From the NCBI RefSeq assembly GCF_044324875.1, contig NZ_CP172185.1: DNA of 64,000 nucleotides, one strand, 5' to 3'. The notes beneath the pieces were generated by a model. That model worked only from the letters and a program-made list of their open reading frames with translations. It had not been told where the DNA came from and did no database searches. The stretch comes from Escherichia coli (GTDB taxonomy: Bacteria > Pseudomonadota > Gammaproteobacteria > Enterobacterales > Enterobacteriaceae). Below, in pieces: positions 25,010 to 43,440 of the stretch (within the stretch, counting starts at the first letter, position 1; every line of letters begins with the position of its first letter). The translations under genes were made by a program, and so were the position numbers.

Positions 25010-25050
25010 GCCGGATGCGACGCACGGGTGTTACGCATGTCGCATCCGGC
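25010..25050. repeat. REP-like palindrome between convergent recD and argA
   Basis: gccggatgcgacgc ... gtcgcatccggc inverted repeat read directly. Confidence 0.45.
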
Positions 25051-35886: not shown

Positions 35887-35943
35887 ATTTTTCACCCCAT
35901 CATTCGATAACCGCCCGCGTCATGCGGGCGTACCGGTATGAGA

Positions 35944-36367: not shown

Positions 36368-37786
36368 TCACACTTCCTCTATAAATTCAGGTTCAGTTTG
36401 CGGGTAGAAATAACGGTACTGATAATGAATCTGCGCGCGGGCTTCTTCCGGGCTGTTAAATTCCCCTACGCCATACCAACCGAACAGCGCAGCTCCTGCG
36501 ACGGTCGTTTCTGCGTCGTCGAGAACTTTTACCGGAATATCAAGCATATTGGCTTTAATCTGATTCCACAAAGTGTTGCGACTTCCTCCGCCGACTAACA
36601 ATAATTCAGAGGCTTTAAAGTGCCCGATTTTTTCCAGCATCTGTAGATTGCGCTGTAATTGCTCAGTTAACCCTTCCAGCGCCGCGCGATAGAAATGCCC
36701 CCGCGTGGTATTAAGCGTCACTCCTTGCCAGCCAGCGTTCTGACACGACAATAAATCACACTGCATTTTCACACCATCCGCGCCAGGTGCGATCAGACGA
36801 GCCTCTTCAATCAACATTTGCCAGGGAGTTTCAGCCGTCCAGAACAGTTTTCTCACCCATTCCAGCACGCCGGATGCCAGCCATTGCATACCTGGGTTAT
36901 ACAACCCTGCCTGACTATCCAGTTCGCAGGTGGAACCGGCATACTGACTTAACAGCGAAGTATCAACCTGGGCGCTACGGACCATTAAAATTTCCCATGT
37001 ACCGGAAGAGAGCACGGGTTCATTTTGTTCAGCACCAGCGCCAAAAAGGGCGAACTGGGTATCGTGACCTGCGGAAATCACCGGTATGCCAACGGGTAAG
37101 CCGAGCATTGCTGCGGCGCTGTTCTGTAACGTACCAATCTGTTCACCCGCTTCCACCAGACGAGGGAAGAGGCGGCGTGGAATACCGGTGGCGTGTAAAA
37201 TTTGCGGACTGAAATCGCGTTGCTGGATATCCAGCATCTGGCTGGTTCCGGCCATCGTGATATCAGTAGTGAATTCGCCGGTTAAACGGTGGTTAATCAG
37301 CGACGAAATAAAGAGCCAGGCGTGCGCGCGTTCCAGCAGTTGTGGATGATTTTCTTTCAACCACACCAACTTATATAACGTATTGAAACTAAAGGCTCCG
37401 ACGCCAGAAATAGCCTGCAACTGCTGTGCGGAGATCAACCGTTCAATATTGTCCATTACCGCTGCTGTTCGCGGACATTTCCAGCTAATGATCGGATAGA
37501 GCAGATTGCCTTGCTTATCTACCAGAGCGCCATCCACACCAAAGGTGGTGACGGCGATACCGCGGATGTGGCATTCAGTCAGTTCACTATTGATTTGCCG
37601 ACAGCAATCAGCAAAGCGTTGCAAAATGGCGTCTAAAGACCACTGGTGCCAGGTGGTGTTTTCCATCGCGATATCGCTGGCATTAGGCGTTGAGGCGCGG
37701 GCAACAATTTTTCCCTGCCGATTAACCGCGATGGCCCTGACATTGGTCGCGCCACAGTCGAGTACCAGGATAACTTCTTGTTTCAT
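36368..37786 (-). CDS. fucK: L-fuculokinase
   Basis: FGGY-kinase ORF; start placed at ATG 37786 ([17 protein letters not shown]..) because of AGGAG SD 7 nt upstream; ORF track extends to 37816. Confidence 0.9.
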
Positions 37787-37894
37787 AATCGCTCCTGCAA
37801 TATAGCCGGATAACATTGCTTATCCGGCTAACCACTCTTGCTTGTTCAGGCCCGGTAGCCGGAGCGACCGGGCATCACATCAGGGAGTAATGTA

Positions 37895-39670
37895 TTAACG
37901 CTTGTACAACGGGCCGTAGTTCTGGCAAGCGCGGTAATCCTGGCCTTCAATATCCATGCCGTGCGCGGCCCAGGCAGAAGGACGATACACTTTGGTCTCT
38001 TCAACGTTGTGCATACATACCGGGATACGCAGCATGGAGGCAAGAGTGATAAAGTCTGCGCCAACGTGGCCGATGGTTAGAACCCCGTGGTTAGCGCCCC
38101 AGTTCGCCATTACCGAGTACACATCCGTAAACGGCCCTTTACCGGTGAGGCGCGGTGCAAACCAGGTGGTTGGCCAGGTTGAGTTGGTGCGTTTGTTGAG
38201 GATGTCATGCACATCCTTCGGCAATTCCACGCTCCAGCCTTCCGCGATTTGCAGTACCGGTCCCAGGCCTTTGATGATGTTGACACGAGTCATGGTGAAC
38301 GGGACGCCGCCTTCGGTAAGGAAGCGGGAAGAGTAACCGCCGCCACGGAAGTATTCGTGGATCGCCGGGCACCATTCGGTAGCGGCGAGGCAAGCGTCAG
38401 CCTCTTGCTGAGAGATTTCCCAGTGTGGCTTCATCGTCGGGTTACCTTCGCTGTCGCGTTGTTTACAGGAACCGTCCAGCGCAGCAGAACCGGAGTTGAT
38501 CAAATGGATGATGCCGTGTTCTGCCAGTCCATCGAGTTTATGCCCCGTTACACGTTCAATTGCTTCTGGTGACCAGTAGGTACGCACATCGGCAAATACC
38601 TGAGCGGTGCCGGTGAGCTGGTGACCCATTAGCATTGCCACGCCGTTAAGACTGTCGTTTTCGGTCGCCACGACAAAGGGTTCGCGCACGCCATTCCAGT
38701 CAAATGAACTGTTAAGGATCGCTTCGGCGGTGTCGCCATTGGGATATTGATCGGTCCAGTGGCGTTGTCCCTGGAAGCCCGCAGCGATGGCGTTGTAGCC
38801 AAGTGATTCTTCTACGCGACCAATATCGGCCAGTTTGCTGTTGCCTTGCATCATGTCGCGGATACACATCGCCATCAGTAAACTTTCGCGCAGAACTGCG
38901 CGGCTTTGCTCGGCATTGCGTTGATACTGTTTGTTATTTTCATCTTCGCCATAGCGGAAGTTTTTATCAGCCCAGGCCAGCGCCATTTCCAGTTCGGCTT
39001 CGTCGTAAATCTTCTGATCGATACGGCGACGAAGTTCGGTCATATCCACCGCCTGGACTTTCATTCCCAGCCAGGATTCAAAGAAGTTGTGATCAACAAT
39101 AGAACCGGCGATACCCATCGAAACGCCACCCAGCGACAGATAGCTTTTACCTTTCATGCTGGCGACGGCCAAACCGGCGCGGGCAAAGCGCAGCAGTTTT
39201 TCTTCAACATCAGCAGGAATCGATGTGTCATCGGCATCCTGAACGTCATGACCGTAAATGGAGAATGCCGGGATGCCTTTCTGGCTGTGAGCTGCCAAAG
39301 CCGCAGCCAGGTAAACAGCGCCGGGGCGTTCAGTGCCGTTAAAGCCCCAAATGGCTTTCGGGCGGGTTGGATCCATGTCGATAGTTTCACTGCCATAGCA
39401 CCAGCAAGGCGTTACCGTAATGGTGAGGCCTACATTCTGACTGCTGAATTTTTCTTCGCAAGCAGCGGCTTCAGCCATACCCGCGATACAGGTATCGGAA
39501 ATGACACACTCGACGGCAGCTCCGCAGGCATGGCGCAGTTTCTCGGTCAGCAGTGCGGCCGTAGCTTTCGCCATATTCATTGTTTGTTCTTCAAGCGACT
39601 CACGAACACCCATGCGACGACCGTCAATAACCGGGCGGATACCAATTTTCGGTAAGCTGATTTTTTTCAT
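37895..39670 (-). CDS. fucI: L-fucose isomerase
   Basis: 591-aa ORF recognised as FucI. Confidence 0.95.
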
Positions 39671-39702: not shown

Positions 39703-41019
39703 TCAGTTAGTTGCCGTTTGAGAACGGAAACGGGCAAAGATAAAGATGACCGCGAAGCAGAGTGCGGGGATCAGTTCAGCAGTGGGGATGTTGCCCGCCG
39801 CGTCACTGACAAAACCCATGACCGGAGTGACAATACCGCCGCCAATAATGGTCATAACGATGAAGGACGAACCGTATTTGGTGTCCTGGCCGAGATTCTT
39901 AATGCCCAGCGAGAAGATTGTTGGGTACTGAATCGACATAAAGGCACTGCATAATGTCAGGGCTATTAAGCCCACATGACCGCCAGCGAAGGCTGAGATC
40001 AGGCACAGTGCCATAGCGATTAATGCGTAGGCTGCCAGGACTTTGTGTGGTGCGAAGCGACTGATGAGCCAGGTACCGGTGAAACGACCAATAAAGAAGC
40101 ACACCATGGTTCCGGTTAAATAGTTAGCGGCAAAGCCTGCGGTCATACCTGGAATTTCTTCTACAGCGTAGCGAATCAAATAGCTCCAGCAGGCCGTTTG
40201 CGCGCCGACATAGCAGAATTGCGCTAATACCGCCCAGCGCCAGTGACGAATACGCGCCAGACGAGAAAGCGATGCGGAGAACGATCCTTGTTTGGCGTCA
40301 CTGTGATTATCACTCTGCAATGCCGGGAATTTCGTCAGCATGATCAGCAGGGCGACCAGTAACACGATAGCCACGATGATCATATAAGGTGTCTGTACCG
40401 ATAATACCAGGCTGTGTTTATACGCACTCAATTGCTCTGGAGACATTTTATCGAGAACGTCTTGCGATTGATGTGGCACGTTAGACAAAATAAGACTTTG
40501 CCCAAAGACAACCGCGATAATTGCGCCAAACGAGTTAAATGTTTGCGCAAGATTTAAGCGGAAGTGACCACTGCTTTCCGGCCCTAATACCGTAACAAAA
40601 GGGTTTGCGGCAGTTTCCAGACAACCTAATCCGGCTGCAATAATAAATAGGCCAACTAAAAATAAGGTGTAGTTCATTATTTCTGCAGCGGGCCAGAATA
40701 ATGCAGCGCCCAAGGCATATAAAAATAATCCGGTAATAATCCCTGCTTTATAACTGAGTTTTTTCATCAATATCCCAGCAGGGATTGGGATAATGAAATA
40801 ACCAAAGTAAAAGGCCGATTGGATCAGGCCAGCCTGGAAATTTGTCAGCGTAAAAGCCTGCTGGAATTGAGGTAATAAAATGTCGTTAAGGTTATTGGCT
40901 ACCGCCCAAAGAAAAAACAGTGAGCACAGCAGCGCGAATGGAATAATGTAACTTCTGCTTTGCCCTGCATCTTTATCTACCGCACGGTAACTCTGCGTTT
41001 GTATTGATGTGTTTCCCAT
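39703..41019 (-). CDS. fucP: L-fucose:H+ symporter (MFS)
   Basis: 438-aa multi-TM ORF. Confidence 0.95.
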   Translation of the reverse strand: MGNTSIQTQSYRAVDKDAGQSRSYIIPFALLCSLFFLWAVANNLNDILLPQFQQAFTLTNFQAGLIQSAFYFGYFIIPIPAGILMKKLSYKAGIITGLFLYALGAALFWPAAEIMNYTLFLVGLFIIAAGLGCLETAANPFVTVLGPESSGHFRLNLAQTFNSFGAIIAVVFGQSLILSNVPHQSQDVLDKMSPEQLSAYKHSLVLSVQTPYMIIVAIVLLVALLIMLTKFPALQSDNHSDAKQGSFSASLSRLARIRHWRWAVLAQFCYVGAQTACWSYLIRYAVEEIPGMTAGFAANYLTGTMVCFFIGRFTGTWLISRFAPHKVLAAYALIAMALCLISAFAGGHVGLIALTLCSAFMSIQYPTIFSLGIKNLGQDTKYGSSFIVMTIIGGGIVTPVMGFVSDAAGNIPTAELIPALCFAVIFIFARFRSQTATN

Positions 41020-43407: not shown

Positions 43408-43440
43408 GCCGGATGCGACGCTAGCTGCGTCTTATCCGGC
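43408..43440. repeat. REP element between convergent fucO and xni
   Basis: gccggatgcgacgc tagct gcgtcttatccggc, followed by a partial second copy (ttgcatccggcacgcc). Confidence 0.5.

Follow-up and report, generated by a model that had tools for sequence, protein, structure and literature searches.

The window analysed here, a 64,000-nucleotide stretch of Escherichia coli DNA, carries the fucPIKUR operon on its minus strand. Within the operon, fucI (37895-39670, minus strand; open reading frame list and K-12 annotation) ends in a UAA stop codon at 37895-37897 (minus strand), and fucK, encoding a 472-aa protein (NP_417283.2 in the K-12 annotation), starts at an AUG codon at 37784-37786 (minus strand), as annotated in K-12. 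The two genes are separated by an intercistronic spacer of 108 nt (37787-37894, minus strand), in which the fucK Shine-Dalgarno sequence AGGAG (37792-37796, minus strand) lies 5 nt ahead of the AUG. Its GGAG is kept in all aligned genera (alignment A2), and the fucK start with its MKQ.. N-terminus is kept in all genera compared. The open reading frame list places the longest-ORF start of fucK at ATG 37816, inside the loop of a hairpin described below (hairpin B); since both the Shine-Dalgarno sequence and the MKQ.. start are retained from genus to genus, this ATG is not the real fucK start. The spacer shows no differences from that of K-12 MG1655. Of 5426 complete E. coli genomes, 5424 contain it as a single copy, 5258 of them at 99% identity or more, and the 901 bases around the hairpins also match 5424 of the 5426, with fucI and fucK annotated beneath the match.

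A preliminary description of this DNA had reported two stem-loops between fucI and fucK in fucPIKUR. Both were confirmed: the strings it quoted were found exactly, agccggataacattgcttatccggct at 37804-37829 and cccggtagccggagcgaccggg at 37851-37872, and both fold beyond chance. Since the operon lies on the minus strand these strings are antisense to the mRNA, which is harmless because both are palindromic. The range given at that time (37817-37894) required correction, as its first position, 37817, is a loop nucleotide of hairpin B and half of that hairpin was left out; the true span is 37803-37873.

The fucI-proximal stem-loop, hairpin A (GCCCGGUCGCUCCGGCUACCGGGC; 37850-37873, minus strand), starts 21 nt past the fucI stop codon; its stem, in which a mismatch separates 7 bp from a further 2 bp, is closed by a UCCG loop. 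An inverted-repeat search returned its arms (37850-37859/37864-37873) as 10 nt with 90% complementarity, and folded alone as RNA of the minus strand it reached -18.2 kcal/mol (z = -3.1), with 1 of 200 shuffles as stable. The fucK-proximal stem-loop, hairpin B (UAGCCGGAUAAGCAAUGUUAUCCGGCUA; 37803-37830, minus strand), consists of 11 perfect bp closed by a 6-nt loop and ends 6 nt ahead of the fucK Shine-Dalgarno sequence. Its arms (37803-37813/37820-37830) were returned by the same search as 11 bp with 100% complementarity, and alone, again as minus-strand RNA, it reached -17.5 kcal/mol (z = -6.2), a stability matched by 0/200 shuffles. The whole spacer folded as RNA at -45.1 kcal/mol (z = -3.9; 0/200 shuffles as stable), and in the ensemble prediction both stems had base-pair probabilities of 0.88-1.0. 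Both hairpins are genuine and more stable than chance.

Further elements were predicted around the two stems. The 19-nt linker between the hairpins (CUGAACAAGCAAGAGUGGU; 37831-37849, minus strand) contributes its positions 37831-37837 as the 3′ arm of an outer helix enclosing hairpin A, the 5′ arm of which, AUUACUC (37885-37891, minus strand), lies 3 nt past the fucI stop. Minimum free energy and ensemble predictions gave this helix base-pair probabilities of 0.80-0.99. A T-to-G change in the 5′ arm of strains ATCC 25922 and JKHS006 would break one pair, and because this variant occurs naturally we regard the outer helix as tentative. RNase E cleaves at the motif RN↓WUU. Only two matches occur in the spacer, and one of them, AUAUU (37799-37803, minus strand), is located directly past hairpin B and precedes the fucK Shine-Dalgarno sequence, making it a candidate cleavage site. 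The Shine-Dalgarno sequence itself (37792-37796) was predicted to pair with UCCU at ~37767-37770 (minus strand; +16 to +19 of fucK) in most of the flanking contexts that were folded, its probability of being unpaired ranging from 0.01 to 0.3; if it forms, such pairing might hold down fucK translation without any involvement of the hairpins. A small open reading frame over hairpin A (AUGCCCGG...UGA, 9 codons) was rejected, as it is without a Shine-Dalgarno sequence and its stop is lost in a divergent genome deposited as "E. coli" (L004).

The main thing to know about these hairpins, their probable REP/BIME origin, had been missed in the preliminary description. For the comparison, fucI loci were taken from one genome per species and the sequence downstream of fucI was read. 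Nine orthologous fucI-fucK spacers (L005-L012 and L023) were found to contain canonical inverted REP pairs with the layout ...CCTAC - linker - GTAGG...; they belong to several Citrobacter species, Salmonella enterica subsp. arizonae, Klebsiella spallanzanii and one genome deposited as Serratia marcescens. The K. spallanzanii pair reads TGCCCGGTGGCGCAAGCTTACCGGGCCTAC - 13 nt - GTAGGCCGGATAAGCGCAGCGCCATCCGGC, and that of C. youngae reads TGCCTGATGGCGACGCTGACGCGTCTTATCAGGCCTAC - 13 nt - GTAGGCCGGATAAGGCGAAGCCGCCATCCGGC. In alignment A2, the E. coli hairpins share columns, order and orientation with both REPs, between the fucI stop and the fucK ribosome binding site. By hand count in this alignment, hairpin A (TGCCCGGTCGCTCCGGC-TACCGGGCCTGA) is ~77% identical to the forward REP of Klebsiella/Citrobacter (TGCCCGGTGGCGCAAGCTTACCGGGCCTAC) and hairpin B (GTTAGCCGGATAAG--CAATGTTATCCGGC) is ~73% identical to the inverted Y-type REP (GTAGGCCGGATAAGCGCAGCGCCATCCGGC). 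The 7-bp core GCCGGAT/ATCCGGC is invariant in 12 of 12 sequences, and within the forward unit the swaps between REP subtypes are compensatory, U-A replacing C-G and A-U replacing G-C. In the one genome labelled Serratia marcescens (L007; JADMXW010000002.1), FucI shares 93% identity with the E. coli protein and the spacer carries REPs of the Klebsiella/Citrobacter type; it looks as if either the organism label is doubtful or the locus was transferred.

The E. coli element has the architecture of an inverted-pair BIME (forward unit, 19-nt linker, inverted unit) and is located extragenically, between tandem genes in the transcribed region of the operon; K-12 carries a canonical BIME of like architecture at L002:5397-5493. 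The REP palindrome was defined as imperfect, ~33-40 nt long, with a head GCC[G/T]GATG and a tail [C]TTATC[C/A]GGC. Against this definition, the Escherichia hairpins measure 24-28 nt; hairpin B retains GCCGGATAAG and ATCCGGC with its centre replaced, and hairpin A fits the GCCCGGT..ACCGGGCC type of Klebsiella/Citrobacter. The GTAG (CTAC) tetranucleotide that flanks REPs is used by the RAYT transposase. In Escherichia hairpin A the CTAC tag has become CTGA, and in hairpin B the GTAGG tag has become GTTAG, so that E. coli, E. albertii and L004 carry GTTAG and CCTGA/TCAGG at positions where most other aligned genera have GTAGG and CCTAC (two rows deviate, Citrobacter Cu233 with TATCGG and S. arizonae with CCGAC). 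Inner stems are absent from both Escherichia hairpins, that of hairpin B being replaced by CAATGTT, and hairpin B has gained AA/UU and UA/UA pairs that complete its perfect 11-bp stem.

Dispersal was assessed by blastn against E. coli genomes. The E. coli spacer was found at a median of 1 place per genome and showed no similarity to other REPs in these searches. Under the same settings the Klebsiella spacer, used as a positive control, matched 27,849 places in total, the median for one E. coli genome being 5, which identifies it as a dispersed repeat and confirms the sensitivity of the search. Because the E. coli spacer is single-copy under settings that detect the Klebsiella spacer, it no longer acts as a dispersed repeat, and an active repeat was rejected as an explanation.

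Catalogued resources were also consulted. A scan of both strands of 37000-38700 against Rfam, with E values of up to 10 allowed, gave no match. The K-12 annotation was uninformative on REP status because the copy of NC_000913.3 consulted lacks REP features altogether, also where the canonical BIME lies (L002:5397-5493). The curated K-12 REP catalogue comprises 355 REP elements and 697 PUs. In the available part of a preprint supplement, fucI and fucK appear only in expression tables, apart from a single row of a terminator table in which fucK stands without a REP label (bioRxiv 10.64898/2026.03.23.713779). A literature search on fucI/fucK returned nothing about this spacer.

Taken together, the alignment data suggest that the E. 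coli hairpins are very probably REP/BIME-derived, forming a decayed and immobile inverted REP pair. The proposed homology draws on ~75% identity over ~30 nt per hairpin plus synteny; alternatively, though with low probability, the GC palindromes were reached by convergence. Under the REP-derived reading, the ancestor shared by Escherichia, Citrobacter, Salmonella and Klebsiella would have carried a BIME between fucI and fucK, and Escherichia would have lost the hallmarks of REP mobility (GTAG/CTAC tags and inner stems) and kept the two strong stem-loops. For Citrobacter and Klebsiella, folding predicts one long hairpin made of both REPs paired together. An 8-nt complementarity between the two E. 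coli hairpin units (37823-37830 with 37856-37863) was also returned by the inverted-repeat search. A switch between hairpins A and B by means of this complementarity was rejected, the inter-unit helix having a probability of ~0 in the ensemble, and the 8 nt are best read as a leftover of REP-REP complementarity.

The spacer was then considered as a conserved sequence. Compared with E. albertii, 2 of 108 positions differ (1.9%) versus 21.7% at four-fold sites of fucI and fucK (Fisher p = 3e-8); compared with L004, 7 of 108 differ (6.5%) versus 27.3% at four-fold sites (Fisher p = 7e-7). The fucA-fucP control region diverges by 8-10% and the intergenic region 3′ of fucR by 14-19%. With divergence roughly ten-fold below that of four-fold sites, the spacer is under strong purifying selection. 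The other intra-operon fuc spacers diverge by 0-3%, about equal to the fucI-fucK spacer, and the conservation is therefore not hairpin-specific. Among seven Escherichia sequences 13 spacer sites are variable, only two of them in stems: an A-to-G change in an O157:H7 strain and a C-to-T change in L004. Both yield G.U on the mRNA strand and A.C on the other, which is suggestive of selection at the RNA level, although with two events the pattern is not significant.

In E. coli 13KWH46 (NZ_CP019250.1), the sole genome of the 5424 whose spacer match covers <80%, a 1332-bp IS3-family element (L084:1670-3001) is inserted in the loop of hairpin A, oriented as the operon and flanked by a 5-bp target duplication, CTCCG. 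Its termini resemble those of IS2. REP-specific targeting by this element was considered as support for REP identity and rejected; since IS2 is not REP-specific, the insertion is no evidence of REP identity. At a further site in the window, the xni-fucO intergenic region (43408-43440; L001:1795-1880), there is one REP of canonical form, to which the available part of the preprint supplement gives the K-12 label REP203 (bioRxiv 10.64898/2026.03.23.713779). Marked differences separate the window strain from K-12 in this REP and in its flank on the xni side, whereas the two strains have the same fucI-fucK spacer sequence.

These data bear on a rival reading of the hairpins as a relic without function, in which a selfish REP pair was inserted, decayed, and persists through constraint on the whole spacer or on linked features such as the fucK ribosome binding site. 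In its favour are the lost GTAG tags, the single copy and the lack of detectable resemblance to other REPs in the E. coli element, together with the similar conservation of all intra-operon spacers and the tolerance of an IS2-like insertion in the hairpin A loop by one strain. However, the ten-fold reduction in divergence relative to four-fold sites spans all 108 nt, beyond the vicinity of the ribosome binding site, Escherichia hairpin B has been lengthened to an 11-bp perfect stem from a 7-bp invariant core, and many lineages keep unrelated hairpins at this place. We consider a relic improbable.

The unrelated hairpins became apparent when 29 fucI-fucK spacers from Enterobacterales were grouped by eye, giving ~16 sequence-unrelated types. 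Most types contain a GC-rich hairpin, typically 6-9 nt past the fucI stop, and z was at or below -2 in 22 of the 29 spacers; the fucP-fucI spacer, used as a control, was unstructured (z between -1.6 and +0.9). Examples include Buttiauxella (UGCCGCCGCC...GGCGGCA) and Edwardsiella (GGGCGGCAUCAUGCCGCCC), with other unrelated hairpins in Pluralibacter, Photorhabdus, Mangrovibacter and Cricetibacter. The series at this one orthologous site runs from canonical REP pairs and a pair both decayed and frozen to an ERIC-like element and single hairpins of unrelated sequence, and it argues that a stem-loop after fucI has been kept by selection.

Two spacers and two further structures of the window deserve separate mention. 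In Citrobacter sp. MGH106 the REP pair is replaced by another palindromic element of ~100 nt (L013:5777-5894; z = -6.5), the ends of which (CATACCC...GGTATGACGGGTATG) resemble ERIC/IRU repeats. The 260-nt fucI-fucK spacer of Sodalis sp. dw_96 (L030:5759-6018) was predicted to fold as a single hairpin, very long and imperfect (-114.5 kcal/mol, z = -5.5), and is probably another inserted palindromic element. Within the same operon, the fucU-fucR spacer (35887-35943 in the window, minus strand) contains a GC hairpin, CGCCCGCAUGACGCGGGCG, in a longer fold of -24.5 kcal/mol; this spacer is 57-58 nt long with z of -2.4 to -5.1 in most Escherichia, Citrobacter, Salmonella and Klebsiella loci, the exception being Citrobacter R56 (42 nt, z -1.5), and differs from that of E. 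albertii at 1 of 57 positions. Elsewhere in the window, a long hairpin at 25010-25050 with REP-like ends (GCCGGATGCGAC...GTCGCATCCGGC) looks like a terminator because GATTTT follows it.

Transcript levels were taken from pooled DESeq base means in the available part of the supplement to bioRxiv 10.64898/2026.03.23.713779, for which cells were not induced and the fuc operon was barely expressed. Per nucleotide, these pooled, non-inducing base means are 0.17 for fucP, 0.97 for fucI, 0.61 for fucK, 0.66 for fucU and 0.58 for fucR, so that from fucI to fucK there is a small, 1.6-fold drop followed by a flat profile through fucU and fucR. A single step at the spacer followed by a flat profile fits either a barrier or an attenuator. 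The first operon gene, fucP (39703-41019), has 5.7-fold fewer reads per nucleotide than fucI in these base means, which a simple 3′-barrier model leaves unaccounted for. The low fucP value might stem from a promoter inside the operon, from more rapid decay of the fucP part of the message, or from mapping effects.

The same step is compatible with the hairpins being mainly a partial terminator or attenuator, either Rho-dependent or pause-driven, which would cut transcription into fucKUR rather than protect upstream RNA. REP325 attenuates transcription in a partly bicyclomycin-sensitive manner and many REPs overlap Rho-binding sites (bioRxiv 10.64898/2026.03.23.713779), and in some distant orthologues a single hairpin is followed by a U-rich tail (GCCCGG..CCGGGCTTTATTGATTTTT in L014 and ...GCCGCCCACCTTTTG in Edwardsiella). 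By contrast, neither E. coli hairpin has a U-tract and the minus-strand terminator scan was negative here, REP325 fragments of 2-4 hairpins showed no Rho dependence (bioRxiv 10.64898/2026.03.23.713779), and the activator gene fucR lies downstream and requires read-through. A role mainly in termination is thus unlikely in our judgement. Intrinsic termination in particular was rejected, since the tails CUGAACAA and UAUUGCAG are without a U-tract and there was no scan match on the operon strand.

Related operons provide a precedent for protection of the upstream message. Protective 3′ structures in E. coli operons shield upstream RNA from 3′-exonucleases once an endonucleolytic cut has been made, as for the malE-malF REPs, and are conserved in Salmonella and Enterobacter (PMC5927463). 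REP325 in yjdMN acts as a dual stabiliser and partial Rho-dependent terminator, and across 146 REP-containing tandem pairs the median log ratio of upstream to downstream expression is 0.96 versus -0.09; nevertheless, REPs do not uniformly lengthen half-lives, and their effects weaken with less canonical sequence (bioRxiv 10.64898/2026.03.23.713779). A protective 3′ stem-loop is recognised by a stable stem-loop that ends the more abundant operon segment, together with mapped 3′ ends and a longer half-life upstream; of these marks, the fuc locus shows stable, conserved stem-loops and, in the pooled, non-inducing data, a 1.6-fold fall in reads per nucleotide.

By analogy to the malE-malF REPs and REP325, we propose that an endonucleolytic cut would occur downstream of the hairpins in the fucPIKUR transcript and that the stem-loops would then block 3′-to-5′ exonucleases; they might also cause RNA polymerase pausing or partial termination. 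Cleavage at AUAUU would yield a fucI message ending in two stable hairpins and a fucKUR message with an unprotected 5′ end. The predicted outcome is that the fucI (possibly fucPI) segment would be more abundant than fucKUR. As a whole, the locus appears best explained by a decayed BIME acting as a 3′-exonuclease barrier and/or partial terminator, to which we assign a probability of roughly 0.55. That the hairpins would act specifically as a stabiliser or attenuator favouring fucI (possibly fucPI) over fucKUR has about even odds. The preliminary description had suggested that the stem-loops set differential mRNA stability or decouple translation within the operon. This suggestion draws partial and indirect support from the known role of REPs, the conserved spacer, the G.U-only stem variants, the other hairpins at the site and the 1.6-fold drop, which would make it plausible; processing, termination or a change of half-life at this particular spacer stays conjectural.

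Alternatively, the structures may serve translation, either by stalling ribosomes at the fucI stop or by insulating fucK initiation from fucI translation. Work by Liang, Rudd and Deutscher in 2015 is said to have found that a REP within 15 nt of a stop codon stalls terminating ribosomes. The first REP lies 9-12 nt past the fucI stop in Klebsiella, Citrobacter and Salmonella, but hairpin A of E. coli, at +21 nt, is beyond this 15-nt limit. The predicted outer helix does begin 3 nt past the stop, yet it is the tentative part of the fold, with one pair broken by a natural variant. Similarly, hairpin B closely precedes a Shine-Dalgarno sequence that is predicted to be paired, but the pairing partner is within fucK and outside the hairpins. 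A translational role is therefore very doubtful.

A more specific version of the BIME-based reading may also be entertained, although only tentatively. In this scenario the BIME, having lost the tags that REP mobility requires, would have been exapted, and the 108-nt RNA, in which an outer helix encloses hairpin A and hairpin B lies beside the fucK ribosome binding site, would have been frozen across Escherichia as a sequence-specific processing/attenuation module that fixes the FucI:FucK ratio. The same need would have been met convergently elsewhere in Enterobacterales by unrelated hairpins, REPs and an ERIC-like element. Separately, fucI and fucK are named as targets of Spot 42 in a review. 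Pairing of Spot 42 to the spacer was rejected, as the best duplex (nt 1-65) reached -13.9 kcal/mol, weaker than 87% of random windows.

Repeats of this kind are already known to raise upstream over downstream operon mRNA; the finding is ordinary but sound, and it leaves general understanding unchanged. If the hairpins tune fucI against fucKUR, they would provide a further case of a selfish repeat retained as a post-transcriptional dial in a sugar-utilisation operon, and the locus would offer a convenient natural series for REP domestication, with all types at one orthologous site. A small practical bearing concerns fuc operon engineering, for example in fucosyllactose or fuculose strains with fucI and fucK edits.

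Compared with known systems, the fuc element resembles BIME/REP (PU) pairs such as that of malE-malF in its inverted GC-rich palindromes with GCCGGAT...ATCCGGC and GCCCGGT...ACCGGGC cores, in its extragenic location within an operon just 3′ of a gene, and in being positionally orthologous to the REP pairs of sister genera. Unlike these pairs, the fuc hairpins have mutated GTAG/CTAC tags, are 24-28 nt rather than ~33-40 nt long with the inner stem lost, and are single-copy and nearly frozen within Escherichia. Judged from the aligned sequences, the element would thus descend from REP/BIME and lack two of its defining features, the GTAG tag and multi-copy dispersal. REPINs are reportedly REP doublets that form one long hairpin (Bertels and Rainey, 2011). 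The fuc element shares with them the two inverted REPs and, in E. coli, the 8-nt remnant complementarity; unlike REPINs, the E. coli units fold separately, with an inter-unit helix probability of ~0. As in intrinsic terminators, a GC-rich hairpin lies in a transcribed spacer, but no U-tract follows either fuc hairpin. REP325 of yjdMN is likewise a REP-type element between tandem operon genes of which the upstream one is expressed more highly; it differs in being a long canonical array characterized by deletion, Northern and bicyclomycin data, whereas the fuc element comprises two degenerate hairpins known from sequence. Finally, the fuc operon is outside the set analysed by Dar and Sorek in 2018 (PMC5927463; 0 occurrences of 'fuc'), but its hairpins resemble the stem-loops described there in that a stable stem-loop, of a structure conserved across enterobacteria, is located where an abundant upstream segment meets a scarcer downstream one.
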